From NCBI GenBank assembly GCA_964608905.1, contig CAZSQE010000001.1:1-30982 (forward strand): a DNA stretch of 30,982 bases, read 5' to 3'. The number at the start of each line of letters is the position of its first letter. Positions within the stretch are counted from its first letter, which is position 1. Of this stretch, positions 4,528 to 26,008 are shown piece by piece. A program made the position numbers and the translations under genes. The DNA is from an uncultured bacterium (lineage in GTDB: Bacteria > Eisenbacteria > RBG-16-71-46). The notes beneath the pieces are model-generated. The model had not been told where the DNA came from. It saw only the letters and a program-made list of their open reading frames with translations, and ran no database searches.

Positions 4528-4570
4528 CGCGCGTGACGTTCGAGCACTACGTGAAGGTCGCGCTGCAGGC

Positions 4571-9996: not shown

Positions 9997-10025
9997 GGCG
10001 GCCTCCGTGGCGTGATGGACGACCG

Positions 10026-10037
10026 AATCTAGCACAG
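10026..10037 (-). promoter_or_regulatory. Extended -10 promoter element (CTGTGCTAGATT)
   Basis: TG-n-TAGATT. The identical 12-mer occurs at 21566-21577 at almost the same distance from the kinase start, and a variant (TGTGCTAGGCT) lies near 15159-15169. Confidence 0.55.
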
Positions 10038-10262
10038 CACCCCCGGGCGAATGGCCGACGGTGGAGGAAATGCCGGGCCGCGGCTGAGTCTGGTCGGGAA
10101 TCGCCGCGGCGCGGGGCGAGCCCACCGACGTCGTGGCCTGCTTCACATTCAGCGCGGCGATGTGCATAATGCGCGCCCCGCAGGCCATCCGCCCCCCCGG
10201 AGCAGCGGCTGCCAACTCGCTGCACGCGCCACGAACCCACGGCGGACGCGCCGGAGAACCCG

Positions 10263-11024: not shown

Positions 11025-11082
11025 CGTCCCCCGGCCGGGAGGCGCCCTCGGCACGAGTCGAACGCGCGCCGCGGGAGCGGTC

Positions 11083-13110
11083 TCAGTACGCCCGCAGCTC
11101 CACGCGCATCGTCCGCCCGGGGCGCGGGAGCCCGTAGGCGTCGAACTGGACGGCGTCGGTCAGGTTGTCGAACGCCGCCCGGAGCTGGAGGCCGCGGAAC
11201 CACCCGCCGCCGTGGACCGGCCAGTCCCGCGACAGCTCGACGTCCAGCTGTCCCGCCGGGGCGAGCCTCGACTCGACGTCGTGCTCCGGGTCGATGGCGG
11301 ACTGCTCCCCCGTGAAGCGCGCCTCCACGGCCGCGTGCAGCCCCCGGCCGACCGGCATCCGTACGCGCAGGCCCCCCATCCACTCCGGCGTGTTCTCGGG
11401 CCGCGTGAGCCCGGCGGCCGGGTCGAGCACCCGCACGTCCTGCCCGACGGCGTCGGCGCTCAGCTCCAGGACGCCGACCGCGTGCGACGCGAGGACCTCG
11501 ACGCCGACGCTGCGGACGCCCTCCTGGTTGACGCGTTGGTAACGCTCGCCCGGCGGGCGGATGCGCACCACGGCATCCGAGAGATGGTGGTGGAATCCGA
11601 CCACCTGCAGGCTCCCGCGCGACGTGCGGGACGTCACGCCGGTCTCGAGGGCGACCAGGTGCTCGGGCCGGAGGTCCGGGTTGGGCTCGAACGTCCCGAG
11701 CGCGCCGGAGTAGAGCTCGCGCAGCGACGGGAAGCGCGCCCTCCGGCTCGCGCCGGCGTGGACGGTCGTCGCGCCGCGGCCGACGCGGGCCGCGACGCCG
11801 AGGCGGCCGCCCCACTGGCCGAGGGCCTCGAACGACGGCTTGTTCCCCGTCTCGGGCGTGTCGGCCCCGTCGAGGGTCGCGCCCGCGCTCAGCGCGAACT
11901 CGCGCACGACGCCGGCGCCGGGCACGCGGGCCAGCGCCTCGGCGGCCCCGCTCCAGAGGCGCTGGCGATAGGCAGTCGACACGCCGTCGAGGATCTCGTC
12001 GTGCCGGACGTCGCCGTACGAGAACGCGGCGCGAACCTCGCCCCGGCCGCCCAGGGTCTGCAGCGCCGTGCCCCGCAGCGTGAGCACGCCGTCGTCGGCG
12101 TCCTCCTCGGCGGTCACGGTGGCGTAGTCGCGTGACTCGTAGGCGTCGATCTCCGTCCGCCCGCGGTCGTACCCGCCGCTCACCTGCAGGTCGGCCCGGC
12201 CGCCCCACGGCATCGCGTGGCTGCCGGTGCCGGCGGAGACGATCCCGATGCCGCGGGCGATGTGCGGGTAGCGCCAGAACCGGGCGGAGGCCACGCCGAG
12301 CTGCGCCGCGATGCCGCGCTCGGCGCGATAGCCGAGCCCGAGCACGGAGAGGTGCGCCCCCCGCTCGGCATCCACGCGCAGAGCGACGAACCCGTTCGAC
12401 TCCCGGAAGTCGGTGTTGAGGCGCTCGTCGCGGTCGGCGGGCACCGGCTCCTCGATGCCCCGCGGCAGCGTCTGCCCCGGCGAGCGGCGCTGGCCGGCGC
12501 CCGCGCGGGCCGTGAGCACGCCCCAGCCCAGGTCGCGCGGGACCGTGACGGCTCCCGCCAGTCCGAACCCGCCGAGTCCGTCAACGCCGGCGCGGAGCTG
12601 GGAGGAGGCCCGCCGTCCTTCGACGTCGGACGGGGCCGTGCCGAGTTCCACGACCCCGCCGAGGGTGTTGGGCCCGTGCGTGAGCGACGACAGCCCGCGC
12701 ACGAGCGTCACCCGGTCGATCGCGAGCGCCGGGATCACCGAGACGTCCGCCCGGCCGTCCCAGGCGAAGGTCAGCGGCACTCCGTCCAGCAGGACGGCCA
12801 CCTGCCGGGACTCGGAGCCGCGCACGGTCACCTCGGCTTCGCCGCGCGAGTTCGTCCGGATGTGGGTGCCGGGCAGAGCGCGGAGCACCTGTTCCACCGT
12901 CGGCATGGACTCGAGCGGCAGCGAGTCGAGCCTGGCGGTGACCATCCCGGCCCCCTCCGGGGTGGCCGCGGGCCGCGGGCCGCGCACGAGGACCTCGGGC
13001 AGCTCGACGAGCAACGTGTCGGCGGGAGGCGATGGCCCGTGTGCGGCCGCGTCCGCCGTCCAGAGGCAGAGGGCAAGCACCGTCAACAGCCGTCGCGGCC
13101 GCCGAAGCAC
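11083..13110 (-). CDS. TonB-dependent receptor
   Basis: GTG at 13110 follows AGGAGG. Plug motifs LRALPG, VTVRGSESRQVAVLLDGVP, IDRVTLVRGLSSLTHGPNTLGGVV. Barrel end FDNLTDAVQFDAYGLPRPGRTMRVELRAY. Confidence 0.92.
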   Translation of the reverse strand: MLRRPRRLLTVLALCLWTADAAAHGPSPPADTLLVELPEVLVRGPRPAATPEGAGMVTARLDSLPLESMPTVEQVLRALPGTHIRTNSRGEAEVTVRGSESRQVAVLLDGVPLTFAWDGRADVSVIPALAIDRVTLVRGLSSLTHGPNTLGGVVELGTAPSDVEGRRASSQLRAGVDGLGGFGLAGAVTVPRDLGWGVLTARAGAGQRRSPGQTLPRGIEEPVPADRDERLNTDFRESNGFVALRVDAERGAHLSVLGLGYRAERGIAAQLGVASARFWRYPHIARGIGIVSAGTGSHAMPWGGRADLQVSGGYDRGRTEIDAYESRDYATVTAEEDADDGVLTLRGTALQTLGGRGEVRAAFSYGDVRHDEILDGVSTAYRQRLWSGAAEALARVPGAGVVREFALSAGATLDGADTPETGNKPSFEALGQWGGRLGVAARVGRGATTVHAGASRRARFPSLRELYSGALGTFEPNPDLRPEHLVALETGVTSRTSRGSLQVVGFHHHLSDAVVRIRPPGERYQRVNQEGVRSVGVEVLASHAVGVLELSADAVGQDVRVLDPAAGLTRPENTPEWMGGLRVRMPVGRGLHAAVEARFTGEQSAIDPEHDVESRLAPAGQLDVELSRDWPVHGGGWFRGLQLRAAFDNLTDAVQFDAYGLPRPGRTMRVELRAY

Positions 13111-13226
13111 CTGTCGAGCCTCCTGTGGCGGGGTCTTCCCTGCCGGCGTCCTGGCATGCCCAAGCCGCAGTGGAGCCGAGTCCCCGGCGCTCCCTGCCCT
13201 GCGCGGCGGCGATGCCTCTACGGCGG

Positions 13227-13303
13227 TGGTGGCCCCGGCCGGAGTCGAACCGACGACACGCGGTTTAGGAAACCGCTGCTCTATCCGTCTGAGCTACGGG
13301 GCC
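13227..13303 (-). tRNA. tRNA-Arg(CCT), 77 nt, CCA encoded
   Basis: Acceptor stem GGCCCCG/CGGGGCC followed by ACCA; D-arm GCTC/GAGC; anticodon stem GCGGT-TTCCTAA-ACCGC; T-loop GGTTCGACTCC. Confidence 0.97.
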
Positions 13304-13309
13304 GTACGG

Positions 13310-13331
13310 CAGCAAGATAGCGCACTTTGCT
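13310..13331 (-). promoter_or_regulatory. Probable tRNA promoter region (-10 TATCTT), duplicated at 19136-19157
   Basis: The 22-mer cagcaagatagcgcactttgct is identical in both places and sits at the same offset from tRNA position 1. Confidence 0.65.
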
Positions 13332-13341
13332 GAGCGAGCAA

Positions 13342-13363
13342 ATCAAGCGGGCATCAAGCGGGC
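13342..13363. repeat. Tandem 11-bp direct repeat at a cassette end
   Basis: atcaagcgggc occurs at 13342-13352 and 13353-13363. A related catcaagc occurs at 19168-19175. Confidence 0.7.
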
Positions 13364-13513
13364 ACGCGGTCCATCAGACCGCGTGCCTCGCAGATCGCAT
13401 CCCGCACGCGGCCGGCAAACGGTGACAGCGCGCACCGACATAGTCAGCACCCACCGTGATCGGCGGGACTTCCTTGCCGCCTTTCGACTGATGTACACGG
13501 AGACGGGTCAAGC

Positions 13514-13696
13514 TCACACGACCGGACAACTAGGCTCGCTCGCAAGCGCCCTTTGCGAGTACCGGAGAGCCTCCCTGCCACGACGTTGACATGCTGCTAT
13601 CCAGCTGAGCCGGGTAAGGAACCAGTGGTGACCAGGACTGCGCTGCAGTTCGGCCAGGATGAGCCGCCGCGCTGCGGGCCATTTCCTTCGGTCCAC
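13514..13696 (-). pseudogene. Probable TPR-like gene remnant
   Basis: ARRLILAELQRSPGHHWFLTRLS...EALRYSQRALASEPSCPVV resembles a TPR helix pair, and two in-frame TGA stops follow closely. Confidence 0.35.
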
Positions 13697-13843
13697 CAGC
13701 TCAGCGAATCTGGCTTCCTTGGTCTCCGCAGCTACCGCCCACCTGCAATGGCTAGCCTCTCCGCCTCTCGCCTCACGGCCTCACACGCGGCTCCGTATGC
13801 CGTCCGAGCACCTGTCTCACATGCCCCTCCTCCAACCGCCCGG

Positions 13844-14344
13844 TCACGCGGCAGTGAGGGCGCTGCTCACGCCTCGCGGGGTGAGGACACAACGGCGACC
13901 AATCAAGACATAGATGAGCGGAAGACCCACCACCCTGAGCAGCGGAAGGGACAGCATTAGCCATACGTCGCCGGGATTCTCGTATGTGCGGTTCATGTGC
14001 GTCATGAAGAGCCTCATCAGGCGCGCGAGCTCAGGTACAACGAAGACGAGCACCACGCCGAGAAAGAGGAGGCTCGACACGGCAAGCGACCGCCCACCGA
14101 CGCCATCCGCTGCGACGTACCTGCGAAACACGTGGCTCCCGAGAACCGTCGCGCCTGCGATCAGAGACATCGAAACGACGGTGAGCAGGAGGGCGACCCA
14201 GTAGGGCTCGTCAGCTGACCCGCGCAGCGCAGCGTTCAAGGCATACCAGAGCAAGGTGTTCACCCCCAACGTGAGGACCCACCCAACTCCCAAGGCGGAC
14301 ATAAGCCCGACAACGAGAAAATGCTTCAGCGCCTGCGCGATCAT
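13844..14344 (-). CDS. Membrane protein of unknown function, directly downstream of the HEPN gene
   Basis: Four to five hydrophobic segments. ATG at 14344 follows GGGAGGGAG and lies 14 nt after the HEPN stop. Confidence 0.7.
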   Translation of the reverse strand: MIAQALKHFLVVGLMSALGVGWVLTLGVNTLLWYALNAALRGSADEPYWVALLLTVVSMSLIAGATVLGSHVFRRYVAADGVGGRSLAVSSLLFLGVVLVFVVPELARLMRLFMTHMNRTYENPGDVWLMLSLPLLRVVGLPLIYVLIGRRCVLTPRGVSSALTAA

Positions 14345-14358
14345 GCTCCCTCCCAAGG

Positions 14359-14742
14359 CTAGGAAGCCTGCCCGATGATTCGCGCAGCTTCGAGGACGAA
14401 CTCCCTCGCCTGGGCGATCACCGCCGTCGCCTCGTCGGCCGTGATGAGGGCGTCCACGCCGTAGTCCGCTTGGATCCGGACATCGAACGCGTCGAGCAGC
14501 CAGCGGTGGAAGCGGGCATCCAGCAGTCCCGGGCGCACCAGTTGCTCGCCGAGCGCGCTATGGACTGCGCTGTGCTTGCGGAAGTGAAGCCCCCGCTCGA
14601 ACAGGAGCGCTTCGGCCGCGTAGAGCATGGCGTAGTACGCGCGGCCTGCGGCGAAGTCCGATTCGTCCGCCTGCACGAGGGCCTCGGCGGCGTGAATCGC
14701 CCTCTCAGCCTTGCTGAGGAGACGGCGGCTCTCGCTCTTCAC
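14359..14742 (-). CDS. HEPN-domain protein (UPF0332-like), toxin partner of an MNT-HEPN pair
   Basis: GRAYYAMLYAAEALL...KHSAV...RIQADY (Rx4Y-type motif). The GTG start overlaps the MNT stop (GTGA). Confidence 0.88.
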   Translation of the reverse strand: MKSESRRLLSKAERAIHAAEALVQADESDFAAGRAYYAMLYAAEALLFERGLHFRKHSAVHSALGEQLVRPGLLDARFHRWLLDAFDVRIQADYGVDALITADEATAVIAQAREFVLEAARIIGQAS

Positions 14743-15059
14743 GCGGCGATGGCCTCCATCCGGGCGTTGGCGAGGAAGGGTGAATCACGCTCGATCCAGT
14801 CGCGCTCGGGGACCAGCACCCGACTGATGCTGAGGCCGGACTCCAGGGAGAGAGCCGAGATCAGCACACTCGTGCGGCGGACCTCGCCGAGGTAGCCGTC
14901 CACTCGATCGAGCACGATGATGACGTCCACGTCGGATTCGGCGTCTTCCTCCCCGCGGGCATAGGAGCCATAGAGGTACACCCCGCGCAGGCGCGCGGCG
15001 TACACCTGCTCAAGCTCCGCGCGAAGACGGGCCAGCAAGCCCTTGATCTTCTCGCTCAT
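14739..15059 (-). CDS. Minimal nucleotidyltransferase (MNT), antitoxin of an MNT-HEPN pair
   Basis: LYGSYARGEEDAESDVDV contains the GS...DxD motif. ATG at 15059 follows GGAGG. Confidence 0.9.
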   Translation of the reverse strand: MSEKIKGLLARLRAELEQVYAARLRGVYLYGSYARGEEDAESDVDVIIVLDRVDGYLGEVRRTSVLISALSLESGLSISRVLVPERDWIERDSPFLANARMEAIAA

Positions 15060-15325
15060 GGCGTCCTCCAGCTTGGACCGTGGTCTCGGTCCCCGCCTGC
15101 CCGGCAGTCTCGCTGATCCGAAGCAGGCCAAGCCTGTCCGGAACGTTGCTGCAGTCCAGCCTAGCACAGGACAGTGAGCAGGGCGGAGCCGAGTCGGGGT
15201 GGCCCGCCGGCGCGGCTTGCGCTACGGCCGCGGCGTCGGGGCGCCTCGCCTGAGTGGCTACGACCTTGGCTACGAGAACCGTATCAATCCATGTCCGCTC
15301 GTGTCCTCTCCTGTCCAGTCGAACT

Positions 15326-15362
15326 CGAAGCCCCCGCGCCGGCATCGGACGCGGGGGCTTCG
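15326..15362. terminator. Hairpin about 70 nt downstream of tRNA-half copy 2
   Basis: Perfect 13-bp inverted repeat cgaagcccccgcg / cgcgggggcttcg. Confidence 0.6.
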
Positions 15363-15429
15363 GGATGAGCGCTGTCCACAGCGACTTAGCGTGGTCTGTT
15401 CGAATTGCCCCGAGAATGGACCGGAGCGC

Positions 15430-15468
15430 TTAGGAAACCGCTGCTCTATCCGTCTGAGCTACGGGGCC
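15430..15468 (-). repeat. tRNA-Arg 5' half, copy 2 (first 39 nt, ending at A38), identical to the tRNA
   Basis: ttaggaaaccgctgctctatccgtctgagctacggggcc is identical to 13265-13303. Confidence 0.97.
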
Positions 15469-15519
15469 GTGGGTGTCATGCCGATTCGCTCGCAAGAAAC
15501 TGCACTAGTATCCACCGCT

Positions 15520-15993
15520 TCACTTCAGCTCCTTAGTGATGCCCTTGAGGCTCCACGCGATGACTCGGATCCCGTGCTTCTTGATCGCAGGCGGCAGTTT
15601 CCGTGGAAGGTCTCCCCCATGGACGCCGACCACCTTCTTCCCGAGTTTGACGCTCTCTTCAACCTCCCAATTCACCCACTCGCTGTTCGCTGTCTGGTCA
15701 GACACGTAGACAAGGGTCACGGACGACTGCCGGATGCGCTCGAGGATGCCCTTCCGGATGTAGTCGGCCCGCTCGCTGTCGAATGGCGCCCGCAGCGACC
15801 AATCATTGAAATTCAGTGCGCTACCTTCCTTCTGGGCCTGCCGACGTAACAGTTCGACCTGTGGCTTGTCTTCGTTGGTGAAGCTGATGAAGACGTTTCG
15901 GTTTGCGCCCGCCGGGGTATTCCGCTTCCTCGCCAGTACTCTCCGCCGTTTGAGAGCCGCAGGCGAAGGACGTTTGGCACTGGCACCGCCCAC
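15520..15993 (-). CDS. TIR-domain protein (MTH538/DUF1863, ThsB-like)
   Basis: NVFISF...IRQSSVTLVYVSDQTANSEWVNWEV retains the putative catalytic Glu. The GTG start overlaps the upstream TAG. Confidence 0.85.
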   Translation of the reverse strand: MGGASAKRPSPAALKRRRVLARKRNTPAGANRNVFISFTNEDKPQVELLRRQAQKEGSALNFNDWSLRAPFDSERADYIRKGILERIRQSSVTLVYVSDQTANSEWVNWEVEESVKLGKKVVGVHGGDLPRKLPPAIKKHGIRVIAWSLKGITKELK

Positions 15994-17282
15994 TATGGGC
16001 CTCTGCGCGCGCGGGCTTCGCGAATGAATCCCAGGTTCAGAGCCGTGGTCTCGGGCTCCCAGCTCTCGCGGACCGCTGCCAGCGCCGGCACGAGCGCATC
16101 TGCTGCCGCGGCCTCATCCCCACCCAGCACCGCCAGCTCCATGAGGGTTGCGTGGTCCCAGTAGTTCGGGTTGCCAGAGGTGAGCCGGCGCTTCACCGAG
16201 TACTTGACGACCGGAAGGATCTCTCGGATGCGGTCGTCGGACGGATCGCGCAGCTCCATCAGCGCGAGCGCGTTGATTCCCGGGTAGGCATCGCGCCAGT
16301 CAGCCTGGAACCCCCTCAAGTACGCATCGATCGCTTCGTCTAGAAGCGCTCTCGCCATTGTTGTGTTGCCGGCTTGGACGGCAGCATGCCAGCGGTCTTT
16401 GTACACACGGCCGAGGATGCCGAACGTCTCACTAGAAGGGCCGCGCCGCGAGACGAGCTGAAGCAGCACGAGTTCGGCATCCTCTCCCTGTCCGGAGCGA
16501 TTGAGGGCCAGAGCGAACTGCTCCTGCACCATCACGGATGCCTGCAGGGGCGGGGACATGAGGTCCCGTAGTCGAATCATGTCCTCCCAGGCCCCGATCG
16601 CGCGATAGGAGAGAAAGAGATCGATAACCACACCGACCTCTACGTCGGAGACGTCCCCCAGCTCAGCCTCGAGCGCACGCAGCGCCTCGAGACCGCCCTC
16701 ATTCAGGGTTCTCGCCCGCGCAAGACGCTCCCTCAATTCCTGGCTGTAACCCACTTGCTCGCGGAACAACTCCGCTCTTGAGCGATCCAGGTGTGGTGTC
16801 GGCAGACCTTCGACGAAGTGGAAGACGGGGCCATCGGCGTGAGTCGACCGAGCCGCGCTCAACGCGTCGGCGATCGCAGTTCGAGTGGTGTCGACATCCT
16901 GCGGCTGGCCGTCGGCTCCGAGCTGGTAGCGAATGCAGCGAAGGCCCTGCATTTCAAAGGGTAGGTGCTCACCTGGAGCGACGAGCAGCACGGTGCGTTG
17001 GGGGCGGACGGCATGTCGAGCGCCCAGCGCGTAGAAAGCATTGGTGCTGGCCACTGTCAGGTCCGCAAGCGCGTAGTGAGACAGAACCAGCCGCTCGATC
17101 ATCGGCTTGTGAATGACTCCGCCGAGGTCCTCCTGATCCACGAGGATGGCGTCGAGGCCAGCGTCCTTGATGGCGGGTGCGATCAGGTCGCGGTACACGC
17201 TGTCGAAGTCAATCCAATTGCCCGCCGCGCCTTGCCTGCGGCCGAGCGGCATCAGCACGAAGCACAACTCTTTCGACATCAT
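15993..17282 (-). CDS. DUF4071/MAP3K TRAF-binding-type TPR protein with an N-terminal nucleoside-deoxyribosyltransferase-like domain
   Basis: CFVLMPLG...DFDSVY..LIAPAI...ADLT...NAFYALGARHA, then LFLSYRAIGAWEDMI...QFALALNR...SSETFGILGRVYKDRW...YPGINA...YWDHAT. ATG-ATG start follows AGGAG. Confidence 0.8.
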   Translation of the reverse strand: MMSKELCFVLMPLGRRQGAAGNWIDFDSVYRDLIAPAIKDAGLDAILVDQEDLGGVIHKPMIERLVLSHYALADLTVASTNAFYALGARHAVRPQRTVLLVAPGEHLPFEMQGLRCIRYQLGADGQPQDVDTTRTAIADALSAARSTHADGPVFHFVEGLPTPHLDRSRAELFREQVGYSQELRERLARARTLNEGGLEALRALEAELGDVSDVEVGVVIDLFLSYRAIGAWEDMIRLRDLMSPPLQASVMVQEQFALALNRSGQGEDAELVLLQLVSRRGPSSETFGILGRVYKDRWHAAVQAGNTTMARALLDEAIDAYLRGFQADWRDAYPGINALALMELRDPSDDRIREILPVVKYSVKRRLTSGNPNYWDHATLMELAVLGGDEAAAADALVPALAAVRESWEPETTALNLGFIREARARRGP

Positions 17283-17469
17283 GGCTCCTATAGCCGGGTT
17301 CCTCGCTAGCACGGATTGCCCGTTCGCTCCGAGCGCCTCGAGGAATGCTCCCTGAAGTCAGGAGGGCAACTCGATTCCCTCGCCAGTTCCGCGCGATGGT
17401 GCTCCAGGGAGTGGTCCGAGTCAACAGTGATGAGGCGACGGGCTCTTGCACCCTTGTCTTCCGTGGTAG

Positions 17470-18384
17470 TTACGGCTTCGTGCTTCTCAGAACGACGAGC
17501 CTCGACTGGCGGACCTCGTTGTTGTCGGCCAGGAGATAGAGCCGCCCGAACGTGTCCTCGGCTATTCCTTCCAGAACCCCGAAGAGAGATGGGGACGTAC
17601 CCGAGTCCCGGCCCTCAAGGAGCGAGTCGATGGCCGCGTAGTTGATCCACTCCCGCGGTTTCGACTCCAGTCCCGGACGGTCGAGGAAGGGCTGCACCAT
17701 TCCGATCAGGCGCCGCTGGCGGTCGATCACGCTCACCGTCTTGCCACCGGGTCGGAACGCGGCACCCGATTGCGTCTGAAACGCCGGCGTCGAAAGAAGC
17801 GTACCGGAGGAGTCCGGAACCAGTCGGTATCCGAACGCGTCGGGTTCCAGCACCAAGAGTCGCGCATAGCTTGGCGCCGGCCGTTCCTTGAACAGGTAGA
17901 GTTCGACCCGGTCCCCGGCCGCGCGCCGGAGCGCCACCCCCTCCATGCCGCTATTCTCCACCGATTCCCCCGGAGGTGAAGCGATTCCCGAACGCGACAG
18001 GCGAAGCCCCTGGCCTTCAGGAACGAGCAGGTAGAACCAGGAAACCGGCGCGTCACCGGGACCGCGCTCCCCGGAAGCCGCCAGAGGGCCCGGCGCCGTG
18101 GCCGTAGGCGGCAGCCACAAGGTGACCCTCGAGGAGTCGGCGCCCACCACCGTGATCCCCGAGTAGTCGGCTCGATCCGAACCGACCGGAAGGACGTCGT
18201 ACACGGCCAGCACTTCGTGCCGGGAGAGGATCGGAACGAGCGGAACGCCGGCGCTGTCCCGCGGGACGGCGGAAGGCAGACGCTCCGCGTCCGACCTTTC
18301 GGCTCCAGCCGAACAGGAGCCGTCTCGAGCTGCGCCCTGACAGGCGAGGATGGGGAGACCCAGAACCGCCAGGAGCACCAGCAT
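17470..18384 (-). CDS. Putative lipoprotein of the esterase-like-phytase / beta-propeller type
   Basis: LPILAC lipobox-like motif; DYSGIT, NSGMEGVAL and LEGIAED...LYLLADNN motifs. Start codon uncertain. Confidence 0.6.
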   Translation of the reverse strand: MLVLLAVLGLPILACQGAARDGSCSAGAERSDAERLPSAVPRDSAGVPLVPILSRHEVLAVYDVLPVGSDRADYSGITVVGADSSRVTLWLPPTATAPGPLAASGERGPGDAPVSWFYLLVPEGQGLRLSRSGIASPPGESVENSGMEGVALRRAAGDRVELYLFKERPAPSYARLLVLEPDAFGYRLVPDSSGTLLSTPAFQTQSGAAFRPGGKTVSVIDRQRRLIGMVQPFLDRPGLESKPREWINYAAIDSLLEGRDSGTSPSLFGVLEGIAEDTFGRLYLLADNNEVRQSRLVVLRSTKP

Positions 18385-18999
18385 GGCGAGAAGAGTGCCG
18401 GCGTGGGCGGCAGAGCACGGTAGCGGGCGAGAGCCTGGCGGATCGCGAACAGCTCGGCCTCGGCCACGGTCATGATCTCTCCCCTGAAGCGACCCGGTCT
18501 CGCAGCCGCGGGATAACGACTCGCTCCAACGGGAGACGGTAGTACAGATCCCCGCGGAAGGCCCATCACCCCTTCGCTGGCACCGGGTAGTCGAGGATGA
18601 CGGGTTCAGCCGGACGGCTCAACCCGAGCCTGGTGCGCCAGCGTCCGCACCGCGCTCTTGAAGTTCGCCTGGATCTACCTTTCTTCGTGGAGCCCTTACC
18701 CCTATTGGGAGGGGTTCCACGACGGTCACGCAGACGGGCACGATTGGCCTCGCCCGGTCAAGTTCTGGCTACGGATCGAAGGACTGCTGGGTTCCTCTCC
18801 CGGCGGACGTCTGAAGCGCTGTCGCGTGAGTTTGAGCCCACGGCCCGAGCCGCTCGCCACGTCCACGCCGATCGTGCCAGGCAATCCGGTCGCCGATTGG
18901 TCAGAGACGACTAAGTCCGGATGCGTGGTAGCCGTTTGGTAGCCACGTCCCGGTCCACTTCCCTCCCGTCCTGACCACGCGAGTCCTCCAGAGACCAAG

Positions 19000-19029
19000 C
19001 GCCCCAGGAGGCGCTAACCCCCTGGGGCG
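19000..19029. terminator. Hairpin about 60 nt downstream of tRNA-half copy 3
   Basis: cgccccagg (19000-19008) pairs with cctggggcg (19021-19029). Confidence 0.5.
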
Positions 19030-19090
19030 GCTGGAACTTCTTGGCGGCGATGGTGCTACGGCGTGAGGGCTGTGGAACCTGTGGGGGAGC

Positions 19091-19129
19091 TTAGGAAACC
19101 GCTGCTCTATCCGTCTGAGCTACGGGGCC
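19091..19129 (-). repeat. tRNA-Arg 5' half, copy 3 (39 nt, identical), with the duplicated promoter region
   Basis: Exact 39-nt match to the tRNA, followed by the shared 22-mer at 19136-19157. Confidence 0.97.
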
Positions 19130-19240
19130 ACGCGACAGCAAGATAGCGCACTTTGCTCAGCGGGAACATCAAGCAGAGCAGCGGCCTAGTGCGACCGGGA
19201 TCGTCCGCACTCAAGTCCAGGCAGGATAGACGGCCCCACC

Positions 19241-21535
19241 TCAGAGGTTCATCTTGCGCAGAAGGGCCTGGTAGCGGGCGTCGCTGCGCGCCGGCTCCAA
19301 GAACGGATAGGTCTTGATCGGCATCACTAGCGGGTCACGGGTGTCGATGGCCTTGTCGAGCCACTCAAACGCGGCATTCCAATCACCCAGGCCGATGTGG
19401 CCGAACGCGAACGTCGAGGGGGGGACGTAGGCGGACCTGGCAGCTTCGGCCGCACGCTCCAGCAGCGCGCGCGCGTCGTCGGCACGGCCGGCCCGCCCGT
19501 AGGCAAAGGCCAGGAATCCGAGCGTGAATGGCGAGCCCCTCGACAACTCGTGCGCCCTCTCCAGCGCCGCGACCGCCTCCGTTCGCGCGCCAATCGTGTC
19601 CCGATGCATGCCGAGCGTCCAGTAGCCCAGAAAGTGGTCGGGATCAAGAGCAATCATGTGCTGCGCCTCGTCGTTCACAGAATCCAGGCGGCCGGCCAGC
19701 AGGGCCATTATGGAGAGCCACCAGCGGGTATGGACCGACAGCGGATCGATGCGCACGATGCCCTCGATCTCGGCCATCGCCTCGGCGGCTCGGCCGTGGG
19801 GCAAGAGGCCGCTGATCGCGTGGCGCAACTTCACGAGCGGCGACTCGGGGTTCAGCTCCAGGGCGCGACGGAGCTCGCGGTCGACCTCGGGCCAGTTGTA
19901 GTCAAGCTCCTTGCGAAGCATGCCGAGGAGCGCGTGCGTCTCGGCCAGCGTGTCATCCAGCTCCAGCGCGCGCAGAGCATGCCAGATGCTGGTGGAAAAG
20001 GCGTCGCGCGGGGGCACGTTGCCGAAGAAGCCCAGGAACCAGTACAGCTCTGCCATCGAGTCGTGCGCAACCGCGAAAGATGGATCCCGTTGGAGGGCAC
20101 GCTCGTAGCACGCCATCGCCTTCGCCAGGGCCTCGGGTGTCCCCCTTGCGAAGTGGTGGCGGCCTTCAAGGAATGCAGTGTAGGCCTCGGAATCGACGGC
20201 CGGCCGCCTTCGCGCGCCGCCGTCCCGGGCCAATTCACCCCGGAGCCGCTCGGCGACCGCTGCCGCGACGTCGTCCTCGAGGACTAGCAGGTCGGTCACC
20301 TCGCGATCGTAGCGCTCGCTCCACAGATGAGACCCGTCCCGCGTTGAGACGAGCTGCGCCGTCACGCGCACATGGGAGTGAGCCCGGCGCACGCTTCCCT
20401 CGAGGATGCTCTCGACGCCGAGCCGTGCTCCGGCCTCGCGCACGTCGAGGCCGAGGCGCCCGACCGCGAAGGAGGAGGTACGGGCGATCACGCGCAGCCC
20501 GCGAATCTGCACGAGCGCGTTGATGATCTCCTCGGCCAGACCCTCGCAGAGGTAATCATCTTCACGTGCGCCGCCAATGTTCGCGAAGGGCAGCACCGCA
20601 ATCGTCCTATCCTCTGACCGGGCGACTCCCGAGCGGAGGGCTTCCTGGCTGCGCATGGCCGCGCGTGTTGGAGCGGTCGAGCTGGCTGACGCTGTGTTGC
20701 GCTCGGACGCCCGCAGCCCGTCTGCGAACTGCGCCAACGATGCAGCACGATCCGCCGGGATCTTGGCCAGCGCCTGCTGCAGCGCCTCGGCCACCGTCGC
20801 CGGCACCACCGGCCGCAACTCCGTCACCGGCCGCGGTGTCACGTTCAGATGCTGGTGCAGCAGGCTCGCCGCTGTCGGTCCCGCGAACGGAGGAGCCCCC
20901 GCTAGCATCTCGTAGAGAACGCAGCCCAGGCTGTAGAGGTCCGAGCGGCCGTCGAGATCCTGACTCCCCGCCGCCTGCTCAGGGCTCATGTAGGCCGGTG
21001 TGCCCACCACGATGCCAGCCGCCGTCAGATTCTCCCCTCCCGCGGCGGCCACCACACGCGCGATTCCGAAATCGGCCACCACCGCGTGGCGGCCCTCGAG
21101 CAGGATGTTCTCGGGCTTGATGTCGCGATGGACCACATCATGGCTGTGCGCGTAACTCAGCGCGTCAGCCACCTCGCGGGCGATCTGGAGCGCGTCCTCC
21201 AGCGGGAGCTGCTTCTCCCGGGCCAGCCTGCAGCGCAGCGAGTCGCCTTCCACGTAAGGCATGACGTAGAAGAGCAGCCCGTCGGCAGCCCCGGAGTCGT
21301 GGAGCGGCAGGATGTGTGGGTGGGTGAGCCGCGCGACGGTTTCAATCTCGCGCAGAAAACGCTCGGGGCCGACTGCAGCCGCAACGTCAGGGTCGAGCAC
21401 CTTGATGGCCACGCGGCGGTGGTGCTTGAGGTCCTCGGCGAGGAACACCGTGGCCATGCCACCCTGGCCGAGCGCGCGCTCGATCCGGTAGCGGTCGGAG
21501 AGGGCATCCTGCAGGCGCTGCGACGGGTCGGGCAA
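19241..21535 (-). CDS. Hanks-type Ser/Thr protein kinase with a TolB-like (IAVLPF) domain and TPRs
   Basis: LGQGGMATV, VAIK, HRDIKPEN, DFG and GTPAYMSPEQ, then IAVLPFANIG...YLCEGLAEEIINAL and TPRs. TTG start follows GGAGG. Confidence 0.93.
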   Translation of the reverse strand: MPDPSQRLQDALSDRYRIERALGQGGMATVFLAEDLKHHRRVAIKVLDPDVAAAVGPERFLREIETVARLTHPHILPLHDSGAADGLLFYVMPYVEGDSLRCRLAREKQLPLEDALQIAREVADALSYAHSHDVVHRDIKPENILLEGRHAVVADFGIARVVAAAGGENLTAAGIVVGTPAYMSPEQAAGSQDLDGRSDLYSLGCVLYEMLAGAPPFAGPTAASLLHQHLNVTPRPVTELRPVVPATVAEALQQALAKIPADRAASLAQFADGLRASERNTASASSTAPTRAAMRSQEALRSGVARSEDRTIAVLPFANIGGAREDDYLCEGLAEEIINALVQIRGLRVIARTSSFAVGRLGLDVREAGARLGVESILEGSVRRAHSHVRVTAQLVSTRDGSHLWSERYDREVTDLLVLEDDVAAAVAERLRGELARDGGARRRPAVDSEAYTAFLEGRHHFARGTPEALAKAMACYERALQRDPSFAVAHDSMAELYWFLGFFGNVPPRDAFSTSIWHALRALELDDTLAETHALLGMLRKELDYNWPEVDRELRRALELNPESPLVKLRHAISGLLPHGRAAEAMAEIEGIVRIDPLSVHTRWWLSIMALLAGRLDSVNDEAQHMIALDPDHFLGYWTLGMHRDTIGARTEAVAALERAHELSRGSPFTLGFLAFAYGRAGRADDARALLERAAEAARSAYVPPSTFAFGHIGLGDWNAAFEWLDKAIDTRDPLVMPIKTYPFLEPARSDARYQALLRKMNL

Positions 21536-21565
21536 GGGGCAGCCTCCGGACCACTGTGCCCGGGC

Positions 21566-21577
21566 AATCTAGCACAG
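21566..21577 (-). promoter_or_regulatory. Extended -10 promoter element of the kinase gene
   Basis: CTGTGCTAGATT about 30 nt upstream of the start; identical to 10026-10037. Confidence 0.55.
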
Positions 21578-21597
21578 GTTCTGACCGGCGCCACCGC

Positions 21598-21624
21598 CCC
21601 AGATGGCGTGGCCCAGATGGCGTG
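21598..21624. repeat. 13-bp direct repeat pair at a cassette end
   Basis: cccagatggcgtg occurs at 21598-21610 and 21612-21624, 37 nt from tRNA-half copy 4. Confidence 0.75.
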
Positions 21625-21661
21625 CAGTTGGCCCGCCCAGGGTGCTACCGCCGGCCAGACC

Positions 21662-21698
21662 AGGAAACCGCTGCTCTATCCGTCTGAGCTACGGGGCC
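21662..21698 (-). repeat. tRNA-Arg 5' half, copy 4 (37 nt, ending at T36, identical)
   Basis: aggaaaccgctgctctatccgtctgagctacggggcc. A TG-TAAGAT-like -10 lies upstream on the minus strand near 21717-21724. Confidence 0.96.
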
Positions 21699-22063
21699 AC
21701 TGATTGAGCTGCGGCATCTTACAGCAAACAGGCCGAAGGGCTCACGCGCTCCTGGGTGACGGTTGGGTGATCCGCGGTACCTGCACTCGCCGCCGCAGGA
21801 GCCAGTGCACGGTCACCGGGTCGAAGCCGACGACCCCGTCGCCCGACTGGCCCGTGGCGAGGCTCGATGTCACTTCGCCGGCGGGCCAACCGCCGCCCCC
21901 CCTTGCTCCTTCCCCCCCGGTTGGCGTAAGAACTGCCTCGGGACGGGCAGGATGCTCGGACTCTGCGATCCTTCCGCGGCCCGTGGCCCGCGCAGTACCT
22001 CCGCGCGGACGTTTCACGTCGTTCAGGCACTCGCGTCACCCGGCGCGAGAAGAGGAGGTCCCG

Positions 22064-23158
22064 GTGTTCAAGAAGGCCGTGTTCCCGGGCAAGTACATTC
22101 AGGGCGTCGGCGCCATCGGCGAATTGCCCTCGCTGATCCGGCGGTTCGGTGGGCAAGGGCTGGTCCTGGCCTCGCCGTCCGTGAAGTCCGGGATCCTGCC
22201 CGGATGCGGTCTCGCGCTGGGCGAGGAGACCATCGGGGTCGAGGAATTCAACGGCGAGTGCTGCGAGGAGGAGATGGCGCGGCTGGCGGGCATCATCCGG
22301 CAGAGGAACGTGCGTGTGCTGGTCGGCATGGGCGGCGGCAAGACCATCGACACGGCGAAGATCGCCGCCGACCGGGCCGGCATCACGGTGATCGTCGTTC
22401 CCACCATCGCCTCGACGGATGCGCCGTGCAGCGGGTGCGCCGTGATCTACTCCCGGGAGGGCGTCTTCCAGTCGGTGTGCTACCAGAGGATGAACCCGGC
22501 TGCGGTGCTCGTAGATCTAGAGATCATCGCGGCGGCGCCGACGCGCTTCCTGGTGGCCGGGATGGGCGACGCGCTATCCACCTGGTTCGAGGCCCGCTCC
22601 TGCGACCGCACCCGGTCGCCGAACGAGTGCGGCGGGACCTCGACCGTCGCCGGGCTCCAGATCGCCCGGCTCTGCTACGAGACGCTCCTGGCCGACGGAG
22701 TCGCCGCGAAGGCCGCCAGCGAGGCGCGTGTAGTCACCCCGGCGTTGGACCGCATCGTCGAGGCGAACACGCTCCTGAGCGGCCTGGGGTTCGAGAGCGC
22801 CGGGCTGGCCTCCGCCCACGCCATCCACAACGGGCTCACCGCCCTGCCGGAGACCCACGCCTTCTACCACGGCGAGAAGGTGGCCTTCGGTGTGTTGGCC
22901 GGGCTTCAGCTCACCGACTCGAGCCCGGACGAGTCGGCTGCGGTCTTCTCGTTCTGCGAGGACATCGGCCTCCCGACGAGGCTCATGGACATCGGCCTCG
23001 GCGACGCCAGCCGGGAGCACCTCCTGAAGGCGGCAGAGGCATCCTGTGCCCCCGGTCAACCGATTCATCACGAGCCGGGCGTGATCACTCCCGAAAGGGT
23101 CCTCCACGCCATGCTCGCGGCGGACGCAATGGGCAGGGCCAGACGCACGGGTGCGTGA
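22064..23158 (+). CDS. gldA: Glycerol dehydrogenase
   Basis: GTG at 22064 follows AGGAGG. Motifs PGKYIQG, GGGKTIDTAK, PTIASTDAPCS, GMGDALSTWFE, LSGLGFESAGLASAHAIHNGLT and HGEKVAFG. Confidence 0.92.
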   Translation: MFKKAVFPGKYIQGVGAIGELPSLIRRFGGQGLVLASPSVKSGILPGCGLALGEETIGVEEFNGECCEEEMARLAGIIRQRNVRVLVGMGGGKTIDTAKIAADRAGITVIVVPTIASTDAPCSGCAVIYSREGVFQSVCYQRMNPAAVLVDLEIIAAAPTRFLVAGMGDALSTWFEARSCDRTRSPNECGGTSTVAGLQIARLCYETLLADGVAAKAASEARVVTPALDRIVEANTLLSGLGFESAGLASAHAIHNGLTALPETHAFYHGEKVAFGVLAGLQLTDSSPDESAAVFSFCEDIGLPTRLMDIGLGDASREHLLKAAEASCAPGQPIHHEPGVITPERVLHAMLAADAMGRARRTGA

Positions 23159-23535
23159 TCTGCACGACGCCCACGGGCCATGCGTACCGGGGCGTTGCGC
23201 AGGCTCCCTGCCCGGGGGCTGCCACAGAGCCGAATCCGCGGGCAGCTAGCTAGCCCTGCGGGACGGAAGAACTACCGCGCAACCGCGAGCGCAGACCCAG
23301 GTGGCGGAGGTTCCCCGCACCGCACGTCTCCTCCAACGGAATCGAGGATATCCCGCGAGCCCGTCGACTCCGCTTGGCTTTCCTCGTCGTCGATTGGCCG
23401 CCGAGTCAGGGTCCTCTCCCATCCCTTCCTGTCCATTCCTGACCACAAGACGAAGCCCCACTCGCGGCACCAACCGCAAGCGGGGCATTGCGTGACATGG
23501 ACTTTGGTGGACAGGCTCATCTTGCCCGTGACGTC

Positions 23536-23574
23536 TTAGGAAGCCGCTGCTCCATCCGTCCGAGCTGCGGGGCC
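23536..23574 (-). repeat. tRNA-Arg 5' half, copy 5 (39 nt, four mismatches)
   Basis: ttaggaagccgctgctccatccgtccgagctgcggggcc. In tRNA sense the changes are T8C, A14G, A21G and T31C. Confidence 0.92.
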
Positions 23575-23763
23575 ACGGGCAGGGGACCATGGCCTCTCAT
23601 TTCGACTTCCGCAAGCCACCTCCGCTGTACGTCCGGCGATCACCACCACTGCGTCGCGCGAGCGGAGTCTGCGCACCACGGCGCGGCCGATCCCGTCTGC
23701 GGCACCAATGATGAGGAACGCGCCTGCCGCAGCGAGGCTCAGGGTGTTCGTGTCGGAAGTCAT
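23536..23763 (-). pseudogene. Truncated short-chain dehydrogenase (N-terminal Rossmann segment only)
   Basis: LIIGAADGIGRAVVRRL...VVIAGR. The ATG overlaps the PP2C stop (ATGA). Similarity fades after about 48 codons and the frame ends at the TAA inside tRNA-half copy 5. Confidence 0.65.
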
Positions 23764-24974
23764 GGGATGTTCACGGCTGAAGGGTCAAGGGTCGTACGCT
23801 CGATCGCCAGCAGCGACACATCGTCCTTGGGCGAACCTCGGCACCAGTCCGTCACGGCGGATGCGATGTGGTCAATCCCCGCGCGCAGCGGGAGATCGCG
23901 AACCTGCCCGATCTCGGAGATCAGGCGTTCCAGGCCGAACTCGTTCCCGGCTGCGTCGCGGGCTTCGACGACGCCGTCCGTGTAGAAGTAGAGGCGGTCG
24001 CCAGCTTCCATGGTCAGGCGCTCGGACTCGTACCGGGTGTCTTCGAGCATGCCGACCGGTCGCCCTCCGCCTGCGACCGGTGCCGGCGGACCTCCTCGCG
24101 GCATGAGCACGGGCGGGGGATGACCCGCGACGACGTACTCGATCACGCCGGTTCCGGGGGCGGCGATTCCGTAGATCAGCGTGAAGTACTGCTGGGTGCG
24201 ATCCATCGGAAACTGGCGGTTCAGGCGTTCCGCGATGCGGGTGGGCGGCACGCTGACCGCCGTTTCGCCCAGATTCTCGGTGACGAGCGCCCCTTCTCCG
24301 GGCGTCAGCAGGTGCGCCAGCGTGAAGGACAGCAGGGATGCCGCGACGCCATGGCCGCTGACGTCCAGGATGTAGATCCCGATCCCACCATCCGGCAAAG
24401 GCACGATGCCGACCGCGTCACCGGCGAGGTCATCGCAGGGATGGAAGGCATGAGCGAGAAGGAAGGTGCCGGCACGCACCTCCGGCGGAGGCAGCAACGA
24501 CCTCTGGACGCGGGCAGCCAGCCTCAGATCTTCCTCGAGCGCCTGCTTCGAGCGCCGCAGTGCTTCTTCGGTCTGGCGGCGTGCCGTCACGTCCGACTGA
24601 ACGCCGATGAAGTGCGTCAGGCGGCCGGCCGTGTCGCGTACCGGCGTGATCGACAGCCGGTTCCAGAACGGCACGCCATCCCTGCGGTAGTTCAGGATCT
24701 CGACAACACACTCGCGGCCGGCGTTCAATGCGGCTCGGATCTCGTCCGCCGCGGCGGGATCCGTGTCCTTCCCCTGGAGGAATCGACAGTTGAGGCCGAT
24801 CGCCGCGGAGGCGGTGTAGCCCGTCATCCGCTCGAAGCCGCGATTCACGTAGATCAGGGGCCGACCCGGCTTCTGCGCATCGGCGATGGTGATGCCCTCG
24901 GCCGCGACATCCAGGGCGCGGTCCTTGAGTGTCAGCCAGTCGGAGAGCTTGCCGTCGGGTGGGAGTGCCGTCAC
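23760..24974 (-). CDS. LOV-domain SpoIIE/RsbU-type (PP2C) phosphatase
   Basis: GLNCRFLQG, NYRRDG.PFWN and FIGVQ (LOV). ARVQRSLLP, GDAV, DVSGHGV, FYTDGVVE and DDVSLL (SpoIIE). GTG start follows GAGGA. Confidence 0.92.
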   Translation of the reverse strand: MTALPPDGKLSDWLTLKDRALDVAAEGITIADAQKPGRPLIYVNRGFERMTGYTASAAIGLNCRFLQGKDTDPAAADEIRAALNAGRECVVEILNYRRDGVPFWNRLSITPVRDTAGRLTHFIGVQSDVTARRQTEEALRRSKQALEEDLRLAARVQRSLLPPPEVRAGTFLLAHAFHPCDDLAGDAVGIVPLPDGGIGIYILDVSGHGVAASLLSFTLAHLLTPGEGALVTENLGETAVSVPPTRIAERLNRQFPMDRTQQYFTLIYGIAAPGTGVIEYVVAGHPPPVLMPRGGPPAPVAGGGRPVGMLEDTRYESERLTMEAGDRLYFYTDGVVEARDAAGNEFGLERLISEIGQVRDLPLRAGIDHIASAVTDWCRGSPKDDVSLLAIERTTLDPSAVNIP

Positions 24975-25176
24975 GTGTTCCTCGTCGCTGAGTCAGGGTC
25001 GTGTTCTCCGGGCGGGCGTTCCGTTCGCCGCCGAAGACGGCTCTGGAAGAGGCTGAGCAAAGGTACTCCATTCCTTACGCGGAGGACATGGGTCTCCTCT
25101 CGCGTCGCGCGTACCCCGCCCTTGCCGTACCGGCGACTCGCCGCGGCCGGCCTCTCCCCCGCGGGCCCAGCGCTCC

Positions 25177-25956
25177 TCAGAACCGGCGCTCGATCCCCAC
25201 CACGGCGTAATGGAGCCACGCGAACGTGTAGACCTCGTCCACGTCGGCGCCGCCCTCGACCGTGCGGTAGCCCGCGGTCAGGGTCCACGCGTCGCCGAGA
25301 TCGCGGCCCAGCGTGAGTGCGACGTCCTCGGCGCGGCCCGGTCCGCCCGCCAGCGCGTCGGCGTCGAGGCCCAGCTGCCAGCTCGGCGCGAAGCGCCACT
25401 CGCCCGCGACGTGCAGCAGCGGCACGAAGCCGAGGTCGGTCTTGCGGCTCGTGACGGTGCCCTGGACGAGTTCGATCTTCGCGTCGCGCACCTTGGCGGT
25501 GAATCCCGTCCACCACGTCCAGCGCGCGCCCTCGTGCAGTCGGTAGCGGTAGGAAAGCCGGTACGAGTTGAACTGGTACGTCGCCTCGACGGGCACGCCG
25601 GGCGCATAGGCGGCGCCGGCGAAGTCGATCGTCCGGCCGGGGATGCCGGTCTCAATGATCGAGAACGGCGCCGCCAGCACGCGGAGCGCATGCCGCTCGC
25701 CGGTGCGCCACGTGAGGTAGGCGCGGCCCGCGGGCCACGGTCCGGAACCTGCGAGGTCGCAGAGCGTGAAGCGGGTCCCCGAGGCATCGTTCGGGATCTG
25801 CACGTCGTTGAGGCTCTGCCACGCTGGGCCGCCCTCGATCCGCACGGTGAAGCGGGGCGCCTCCGTGGCGCGGGCCACTGGGGCGGGACAGGCGCCGGCG
25901 AGGCAGGCAACGCTCAGCGCCAGCGCGGGGGCTGCGGGAAGCCGAAAAGCGTTCAT
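25177..25956 (-). CDS. Putative outer-membrane beta-barrel protein
   Basis: ATG at 25956 follows GGAGGG. Signal peptide, amphipathic strands (YRLSYRY, LHVAGEWRF, LTAGYR) and a C-terminal Phe. Confidence 0.7.
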   Translation of the reverse strand: MNAFRLPAAPALALSVACLAGACPAPVARATEAPRFTVRIEGGPAWQSLNDVQIPNDASGTRFTLCDLAGSGPWPAGRAYLTWRTGERHALRVLAAPFSIIETGIPGRTIDFAGAAYAPGVPVEATYQFNSYRLSYRYRLHEGARWTWWTGFTAKVRDAKIELVQGTVTSRKTDLGFVPLLHVAGEWRFAPSWQLGLDADALAGGPGRAEDVALTLGRDLGDAWTLTAGYRTVEGGADVDEVYTFAWLHYAVVGIERRF

Positions 25957-26008
25957 GGGGTCCCTCCGGGTGACGCCTGCCACTCGGCCTCGGTCGGCCG
26001 GCATGGGG

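Follow-up and report, generated by a model that had tools for sequence, protein, structure and literature searches.

A tandem array of integrase-less units on the 5′ side of tRNA-Arg(CCT) in an uncultured bacterium of Candidatus Eisenbacteria

The stretch of DNA described here, referred to as the window, is 30,982 nt long and constitutes the entire contig C1 of a metagenome-assembled genome (MAG; 2.9 Mb in 615 contigs, 86% complete) whose relatives carry the label Candidatus Eisenbacteria. The window contains a single tRNA gene, tRNA-Arg(CCT), on the minus strand (ARAGORN; Rfam RF00005, 63.4 bits). Upstream of this gene and co-oriented with it are four copies of only its 5′ half, termed half-sites H1 to H4, which bound four units of cargo, A to D. 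A search with the 37-mer that consists of tRNA positions 1–37 shows exact matches at 13267–13303 (within the tRNA gene itself), 15432–15468, 19093–19129 and 21662–21698, and a fifth copy with 4 mismatches at 23538–23574, all on the minus strand; dinucleotide shuffles give no match (0/100). In alignments, tRNA position 1 is where identity starts in the copies, and in three of them it extends to the 3′ edge of the anticodon loop (TTCCTAA). In the copy at 21662 it stops two bases sooner, inside the anticodon loop. Approximately 77% of ~140 half-sites from relatives and metagenomes go on with TAA and then diverge. Rfam shows no RNA family besides the tRNA in the region 12500–24500. The locus therefore displays the Islander-type arrangement, i.e. 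an intact tDNA preceded, on its own strand, by 5′ fragments that begin with position 1.

The units are 2126 bp (A), 3622 bp (B), 2532 bp (C) and 1837 bp (D) in length. Units A–C (2.1–3.6 kb) fall within the 2–200 kb range of Islander, while unit D (1.84 kb) is below the cut-off. Unit A carries a pair of MNT and HEPN genes and a gene for a membrane protein with four transmembrane (TM) segments; the unit also matches PADLOC PDC-S09 (3e-26). Unit B encodes a ThsB-like TIR protein, a MAP3K_TRAF_bd/TPR-S protein and a lipoprotein, and unit C a large Ser/Thr kinase with tetratricopeptide repeats (TPR) at its C-terminal end, the kinase domain of which matches the PADLOC defence kinase PD-T4-6 (4e-92). 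The gldA gene of unit D is full length and is found on the strand opposite to the tRNA, with a start near 22060, downstream of the start of the open reading frame (ORF). The G+C content at third codon positions (GC3) is 0.78–0.86 in unit A and 0.75–0.87 in the unit genes overall vs 0.95–0.97 in core genes, a foreign composition. All cargo ORFs in the window are intact and there are no pseudogenes.

Profile searches show no match to a recombinase family among the window ORFs, and there is no PF00589 match on the window contig. Low-stringency tblastn with four members of the integrase family found in relatives (see below) yields a best E-value of 0.04, on the wrong strand, and no integrase remnant. 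An initial annotation, made from the letters of the sequence, had described an intact tRNA with four co-oriented 5′-half copies, and this is borne out by ARAGORN, the exact-match search, the alignment and the shuffles. The segment lengths that it gave are correct, its gene content agrees with the family matches and translations, and its statement that no recombinase is recognizable in the window holds for ORFs and remnants alike. Coordinates are collected in Table 1.

Table 1. Features of the tRNA-Arg(CCT) array in the window
Feature	Position	Strand	Evidence or remarks
Intact tRNA-Arg(CCT)	13227–13303	-	ARAGORN, Rfam; 3′-most (presumably newest) array end
Unit A, 2126 bp	13304–15429	-	
Right arm of unit A, module P1	13304–13389	-	Palindrome GCGGTC-N5-GACCGC; duplicated 11-nt TGCCCGCTTGA
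Unit A, 4-TM membrane protein	13844–14356	-	Translation
Unit A, HEPN	14359–14742	-	Pfam HEPN 2e-14
Unit A, MNT	14739–15167	-	Pfam NTP_transf_2 2e-08
Left arm X_A (unit A)	15253–15429	-	Hairpin 15326–15362; tandem TCGTAGCCA(AGG)TCGTAGCCA 15254–15275
Half-site H1	15430–15468	-	tRNA positions 1–39, exact
Unit B, 3622 bp	15469–19090	-	
Unit B, ThsB-like TIR	15520–15993	-	Pfam ThsB_TIR 5e-21; PADLOC ThsB 2e-21
Unit B, MAP3K_TRAF_bd/TPR-S protein	15993–17312	-	Pfam MAP3K_TRAF_bd 7e-38, TPR-S 5e-25
Unit B, lipoprotein	17470–18384	-	Lipobox ILAC
Left arm X_B (unit B)	18843–19090	-	Hairpin 19000–19029; GGTCAGGA-type repeats; tandem GGCTACCA(AAC)GGCTACCA 18925–18944
Half-site H2	19091–19129	-	Exact
Right arm of unit C, module P1	19130–19187	-	
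Unit C cargo, 764-aa Ser/Thr kinase, C-terminal TPR repeats	19241–21535	-	Pkinase 1e-47
Left end X_C (unit C), atypical	21536–21661	-	14-nt tandem CACGCCATCTGGGC (two copies) 21597–21624
Half-site H3	21662–21698	-	tRNA positions 1–37, exact
Unit D, 1837 bp	21699–23535	.	Carries gldA
Unit D, glycerol dehydrogenase gldA, full length	~22060–23158	+	NCBIfam NF006941 2e-134, ORF residues 125–481
Left arm X_D (unit D)	23380–23535	-	Hairpin 23455–23486; GGNCAGGA repeats ~23420–23446; degenerate GGCGRCCA repeats 23382–23402
Half-site H4	23536–23574	-	Distal-most copy, decayed by 4 transitions
P2-like upstream module	23575–23625	-	TTGCGG, ~17 nt, -10-like box

Each unit consists of cargo with a half-site and arm modules on both sides, and no recombinase, which is the att retention characteristic of cis-mobilizable elements (CIMEs). 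The junctions are better conserved than the surrounding cargo. Right arms, situated just upstream of tRNA position 1, are of several classes. Class P1 is ~85 nt long and shows a palindrome, a sometimes-duplicated GTGCCNGCTTGAT, and GCGCTATCTT; class P2 consists of TTGCGN, 17 nt and GATAGT; class P3 consists of the 3′ end of an integrase gene and two GGTAGCCA-type repeats. Every class has a -10-like box 10–17 nt ahead of tRNA position 1. The two P1 modules of the window adjoin the intact tRNA and H2; positions 13304–13348 and 19130–19174 share 90% identity. The P1 module of unit A, with a -10-like TATCTT ~11 nt ahead of tRNA position 1, presumably serves as the tRNA promoter today. The P1 family counts 13 members from different genera, and the linkage of a Ser/Thr kinase gene, P1 and a half-site recurs in G019, G009, G047 and G051 and at loci L171, L186 and L207. 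The right end of unit D displays tandem TCACCCA repeats at 21753–21770 and a -10-like TAAGAT. The module beside the decayed H4 is P2-like and resembles, by eye, the upstream flank of many relatives' intact tRNA-Arg(CCT) genes, although it falls outside the blastn P2 cluster; it is a candidate for the original chromosomal tRNA promoter. A contig from an RNA library (X15) spans H2 and the 3′ end of the kinase gene, which hints at co-transcription, but carry-over of DNA is possible.

Left arms (X_A, X_B and X_D, at three of the four window junctions) are ~155–250 nt long and lie just downstream of a half-site. The order of their elements is a strong hairpin, three GGNCAGGA-type repeats and two tandem 11–12-nt repeats of the GGCGACCA or CGTAGCCA type. 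This arm is conserved across at least six genera, including the left end of a 12.7-kb integrase-bearing island in G039. Among 85 metagenome half-sites, 48 have the hairpin and 27 have all three features. Folded singly, the hairpins of X_A, X_B and X_D give delta G values of −41.6 kcal/mol (z −5.4), −36.1 kcal/mol (z −3.6) and −35.3 kcal/mol (z −5.3), respectively; the two arm subtypes align in different registers. The X_D hairpin is terminator-like in a terminator scan, with 14 bp and a T-rich tail. X_A belongs to a 12-member cluster of X modules. Arms similar to X_B (82–87% identical) are found in G003, L171 and L186, and arms similar to X_D (76–88%) in G019, G049, G035, G017 and at the left end of the G039 island, with further X_D homologs on many metagenome contigs. 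Tandem 10–12-nt repeats are present in left arms and in integrase-adjacent right arms; the repeats of the P1 arm differ. The CACGCCATCTGGGC tandem repeat at 21597–21624 sits in the leader of the kinase gene, and a strain from sediment (X5) has an extra 18-nt copy at 21607.

Arrays of the same kind are common in relatives. The 37-mer is found in 53 of the 100 relatives searched, often several times on a contig, and the same polarity is displayed in at least 14 related Candidatus Eisenbacteria genomes and at ~100 metagenome sites. Nine of the arrays, with 2–4 copies each, include the intact tRNA on the retrieved sequence, and in all of them it is the 3′-most unit (G007, G009, G019, G039, G004, G008, G035, G059 and G093). 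Fourteen arrays contain 25 half-bounded units, ranging from 662 to 13,514 bp, which together with the 12.7-kb G039 unit makes 26. An intact integrase is present in three of these, always in the tRNA-proximal unit (G008, G039, G093), short remnants in two, and 21 show no trace. Unit genes are co-oriented with the tRNA in 44 of 66 cases. The commonest cargo consists of kinase-TPR genes like that of unit C, but sensor kinases, toxin-antitoxin pairs, TIR proteins and metabolic genes are found as well. Integrase remnants of 20–130 aa lie upstream of half-sites in G047, G059 and ~7 metagenome contigs, thus decay does yield integrase-less units.

At one locus (L075, G021:C2, 8539–10852) an intact integrase gene is followed after ~1 kb by a P2 module and a half-site and then at once by a 63-aa fragment of a second integrase, a rearranged junction. 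Locus L039 (G007) shows two near-empty units of 700 and 662 bp (3835–4535 and 6794–7456), which agree in their left arm, differ in their right arm (P1-like in one, P2 in the other) and are non-adjacent in the array. The gene pair of unit B that encodes the TIR and TPR-S proteins (window 15520–17427) is present with 81% nucleotide identity in another genus (G116:C414:2181–4052). There it is found on an 8-kb contig without a half-site, thus the pair also moves independently of the array, and the idea that it always travels as a half-site-bounded unit was rejected.

A search with PF00589 and protein sequences reveals one family of tyrosine integrases, members of which lie just upstream of the intact tRNA-Arg(CCT) in at least 16 relatives and share its orientation. 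The distance to the tRNA is 10–1300 nt, and the stop codon can be as near as 10–45 nt to tRNA position 1. Of 20 further members of the family that were retrieved, six are found with no tRNA in the vicinity and two face a tRNA convergently; the remaining 12 lie 50–100 nt upstream of a tRNA for Ser, Lys or Cys and are co-oriented with it. G004, a genome in a single contig, has a family integrase directly upstream of tRNA-Ser(CGA), and two exact copies of that tRNA's own 5′ half are found 45 and 48 kb upstream. The 5′ polarity at Ser, Lys and Cys tRNAs, together with the tRNA-Ser(CGA) halves of G004, indicates that polarity is a property of the clade and not of a single locus. The catalytic residues (R-K-H-R-H-Y) are invariant in 18 sequences. 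The AlphaFold model of the enzyme (mean predicted local distance difference test score, pLDDT, 86.5) has three domains, the N-terminal one a three-strand sheet with a helix, the second a helical core-binding domain and the last catalytic. Among PDB entries it is matched best by full-length lambda Int (1z1b; E-value = 2.5e-11, 357 columns). The relatives' enzyme is thus predicted to have the arm-binding, core-binding and catalytic domains of a lambda-type (heterobivalent) integrase. It scores 63.5 bits against an integron-integrase cut-off of 265, and NCBIfam gives only sub-threshold Xer-like matches.

A 34-kb IMG/VR contig with an HK97-type capsid gene ends in a family integrase followed by a half-site, thus at least one temperate phage uses this site. 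A search for a phage portal shows no match on two IMG/VR contigs; the capsid search is positive on one. Integrative elements that replace the 5′ half of a tRNA therefore exist, and one is a prophage. Candidates for a cognate integrase elsewhere in the MAG were rejected, as these are only generic tyrosine recombinases, 30% identical at most, on four contigs without a tRNA.

Strain variation was assessed with contigs of public runs (Logan contigs, k=31) that were compared with positions 11000–26000. Several apparent joints in these contigs, e.g. from 13303 to 19172, were dismissed as placement ambiguities of the shared repeat. The sediment strain X5, 98.5–99.5% identical to the window, has both flanks and units C and D, but A and B were undetected. 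A groundwater strain (X7, depth ~60) has flanks that are 94–96% identical and a unit C that is 98.7% identical; units A, B and D were undetected, and the 42-nt P1 stretch at 19130–19171, between the kinase gene and H2, is missing. In metagenome contigs the same modules appear in different combinations. In L189, a half-site, X_A and the MNT-HEPN genes (92% identity) are preceded by a unit other than that of the window. L203 has the TIR pair, a half-site and an X_A-type arm at 93% identity, followed by different cargo, and kinase-P1-half-site units are found in other orders in L171, L186 and L207. In the congener G007, the MNT-HEPN unit shares 82% identity with that of the window, near the 84% of core genes; its neighbours are different and only the left part is in common. 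Thus units differ between close strains and reassort at half-site and arm boundaries.

The 3′ side of the tRNA (9467–13226) is variable as well. In G007 the homologue of 9467–9832 directly follows the tRNA, so that the TonB receptor and fn3 genes (10263–13110) represent extra DNA in the window. In strain X7, positions 13032 and 13225 are separated by 2058 bases of other sequence. The integrase family has a second branch that lies 0.7–7 kb downstream of tRNA-Arg(CCT), on the opposite strand, at L083 (G020), L093 (G046), L047 (G008), L094 (G044) and L080 (G012). As this is the classical side, both sides of tRNA-Arg(CCT) may serve as integration sites. Elsewhere in the source genome (contig C49, 3552 and 5071), tRNA-Leu(TAA) is found with a copy of its 3′ half 1.5 kb away, which looks like a small classical 3′-side islet.

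The array probably arose by tandem accretion on the 5′ side of tRNA-Arg(CCT), through serial site-specific integration in which each newcomer replaced the 5′ half of the tRNA gene, and its units are now integrase-less and CIME-like. From the layout of the junctions we infer an attP of the lambda type. In an element of this family it would consist of a right arm with a promoter, tRNA positions 1–38, and a left arm with the strong hairpin and the tandem 10–12-nt repeats, the latter as putative arm-type integrase sites. Recombination between this attP and the tRNA gene, in or beside the anticodon loop, would be the work of a lambda-Int-like tyrosine integrase. The promoter and 5′ half of the element would then be fused to the resident 3′ half, and the right arm would double as a new promoter for the tRNA. 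The earlier promoter and 5′ half would be displaced upstream, where the element's hairpin probably stops their transcript. Four or more such events would produce units D, C, B and A in that order, the newest adjoining the tRNA. The four window units, whose cargo is of defence, toxin-antitoxin and metabolic types, would at present depend for movement on the integrase of a related island or prophage.

The initial annotation had put forward a model of recurrent insertion on the 5′ side in which the tRNA is rebuilt from a new 5′ half each time. The co-oriented upstream integrase of relatives, the intact tRNA that is always last and the swapped promoter modules support it, as does the lack of the two tRNA-proximal units in the closest strain, X5. 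The conserved flanks with variable units that were expected among relatives are found in part: the number and content of units do vary among relatives and strains, but the flanks are only partly conserved. The suggestion that units may be eroded larger islands is likewise only partly upheld, since remnants of 20–130 aa are seen in integrase-less units of several relatives but none is detectable in the window. The integron-like array mobilized in trans that the annotation also envisaged is so far a hypothetical reading, as no cognate integrase was found in the MAG or at tRNA-Arg(CCT) of G004. The 5′ polarity in itself does not require a new mechanism. It is rare but catalogued, with 159 islands with a 5′ tDNA fragment vs 3760 with a 3′ fragment among the 3919 of Islander (PMC4383910; Hudson, Lau and Williams 2015).

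Several observations weigh against serial integration as described above. There is no cognate integrase or remnant in the window or in the 86%-complete MAG, so that integration by the family enzyme is deduced from relatives. None of the P1-type right arms, at 24 metagenome sites and 13 genome sites, has an integrase or remnant nearby, thus P1 units may not be simple deletion products of the integrase-bearing islands seen, and they can be read as a separate, helper-dependent class. A strict sigma-70 scan shows no promoter in 13000–24000, and the promoter calls therefore rest on conserved -10-like boxes whose distance to the tRNA is fixed. The left end X_C has no hairpin (fold z +0.6). The form of the array in X5 is exactly what a deletion between two 84-nt repeats consisting of P1 and a half-site would give, and strain differences could also come about by homologous recombination. 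Lastly, the k=31 Logan contigs of the source run break at each half-site, and the order of the units rests on the original assembler.

These breaks, and the fragmentation of the MAG into 615 contigs, count in favour of an assembly artefact in which alternative single units of different strains were chained through the shared 39-nt repeat. Such an artefact is very improbable. In the source run the four units are of similar depth (17–22), at or above the left flank (9–13), whereas alternative alleles are expected at a fraction of the flank depth. Furthermore, independent assemblies (L203, L171, L186, G003) also contain the B-to-A and C-to-B junctions, and arrays are present in the single-contig genome G004 and on 1.4-Mb contigs. 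It is possible, though on balance unlikely, that the units are immobile leftovers of larger integrase-bearing islands and that strains differ through homologous recombination, for which the 40–300-nt junction modules would serve, or through replacement of the locus. The integrase fragments in G047, G059 and the metagenome contigs are consistent with this, as are the confinement of intact integrases to tRNA-proximal units, the deletion that would give the X5 form, and a divergence of the MNT-HEPN unit from G007 that is near that of core genes. However, the window shows neither remnants nor pseudogenes and all of its cargo ORFs are intact. P1 units never carry remnants, and the arms are conserved although no selection is expected on a dead site. 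Frequent exchange at 39 nt of identity is also easier to obtain by site-specific than by homologous recombination.

The lack of remnants in P1-type units also bears on the reverse proposal, that integrase-less units, especially the P1-type ones with a single kinase gene, are how these elements normally move, with capture at the tRNA effected by an integrase acting in trans. This is unlikely; if it were so, the units would excise as small circles with a complete attP, a phage or island would be the helper, and the locus would be a tRNA-anchored functional analogue of an integron. It would account for the 21 of 25 half-bounded units without integrase trace, many of which consist of a single intact gene with short spacers, and for arms that are conserved across genera at distal junctions as well. 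Exact reassortment at the 39-nt half-site in independent metagenomes, the lower divergence of unit C than of the flanks in X7, and half-sites that remain identical to the tRNA beside units ~18% diverged (window vs G007) point the same way. On the other hand, no circle, excision junction or helper integrase is seen for this genome, and none of the 83 metagenome or viral half-site loci has the terminal repeats that mark a circle. G004 has family integrases at tRNA-Ser and one other site but none at tRNA-Arg(CCT), despite two integrase-less units kept there. The remnants in other units show that decay makes integrase-less units, the near-empty 662–700-bp units of G007 look like debris, and the P1 arm lacks the repeat motif of integrase-adjacent arms.

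The array, read as serial 5′-half replacement, resembles several known systems, among them the 5′-fragment class of Islander. The likeness consists of an intact tRNA with a co-oriented fragment on the correct side, an identity block centred on the anticodon, a tyrosine integrase in related islands and tandem arrays at one tDNA. Islander contains only 4 arrays of three or more members, and requires an integrase for each member and a size of at least 2 kb (PMC4383910). The window differs in that four consecutive units have no integrase and one is smaller than 2 kb. The array also resembles streptococcal loci, where accretion of newcomers beside decayed att-retaining elements (CIMEs) is established in the ICESt1/ICESt3 model (PMC5704250). 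As in CIMEs, att sites are kept while integration and transfer genes are lost, and elements are stacked at an att site that contains the target gene's end. Known CIMEs derive from conjugative elements and lie at the 3′ end of tRNA or protein genes, whereas the window units are on the 5′ side, in an uncultured phylum, and show no conjugation genes. In addition, P1 units give no sign of a parental element. In Prochlorococcus islands, serial integration of tycheposons at tRNAs leaves tRNA fragments and degenerated elements behind (Hackl et al., bioRxiv 10.1101/2020.12.28.424599). Here too successive integrations at a tRNA would push older elements inward, and the cargo has an adaptive or defensive character. 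A tycheposon is defined by integrase and replication modules of its own, and none of these is found in the window.

The window resembles integrons and clusters of attC sites lacking integron-integrases (CALINs) in that small, mostly co-oriented and often single-gene units are ordered and split by a repeated recombination site, the newest unit is at a fixed end, and arrays occur without a nearby integrase. However, there is no IntI, attI or Pc, and the units bring their own regulatory arms. The repeat is a tRNA half with lambda-type arms and not a folded single-stranded attC (Rfam shows the tRNA only). Thus every defining integron feature looked for (intI, attI, Pc and attC) is lacking in the window. 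The islands of dusA-specific integrases insert in the 5′ end of their target gene (Farrugia et al. 2015, PMC4482086). They are similar in that a tyrosine integrase clade targets the 5′ end of a gene, but the target is a protein gene, and long integrase-less arrays are not reported in the abstract. The array is therefore a rare-polarity version of a known route by which islands are built, and it is not yet proof of an integron-like machine or of a new mobility mechanism. Three features are of interest, namely the mechanistic detail of the promoter swap with a probably insulating hairpin, a 5′ polarity common to the whole clade, and the prevalence of units without an integrase. To our knowledge, a right arm that carries a promoter and a left arm that carries a hairpin have not been described for 5′-fragment islands.

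Islands that replace the 5′ half of a tRNA are listed in databases and are hardly studied, because the element must also bring a promoter. The locus and its relatives display how this appears to be solved, with a promoter-bearing right arm, a left-arm hairpin that probably insulates, and a lambda-like integrase clade with this polarity at several tRNAs. The greater part of the units in these arrays has no integrase. They escape tools that expect an integrase in every island, and the amount of accessory and defence DNA organized in this manner in uncultured phyla is thereby underestimated. If the units can be mobilized in trans, they would represent a second, tRNA-based route to an integron-like collection of genes. 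It is doubtful, but conceivable, that the integrase-less units, above all the P1 kinase units, are distinct minimal mobile cassettes, each with a complete lambda-type attP around a promoter and a tRNA 5′ half, that use borrowed phage or island integrases for capture and release at the tRNA and go unseen by standard island finders. If this were true, Eisenbacteria would possess a tRNA-anchored gene-cassette system.

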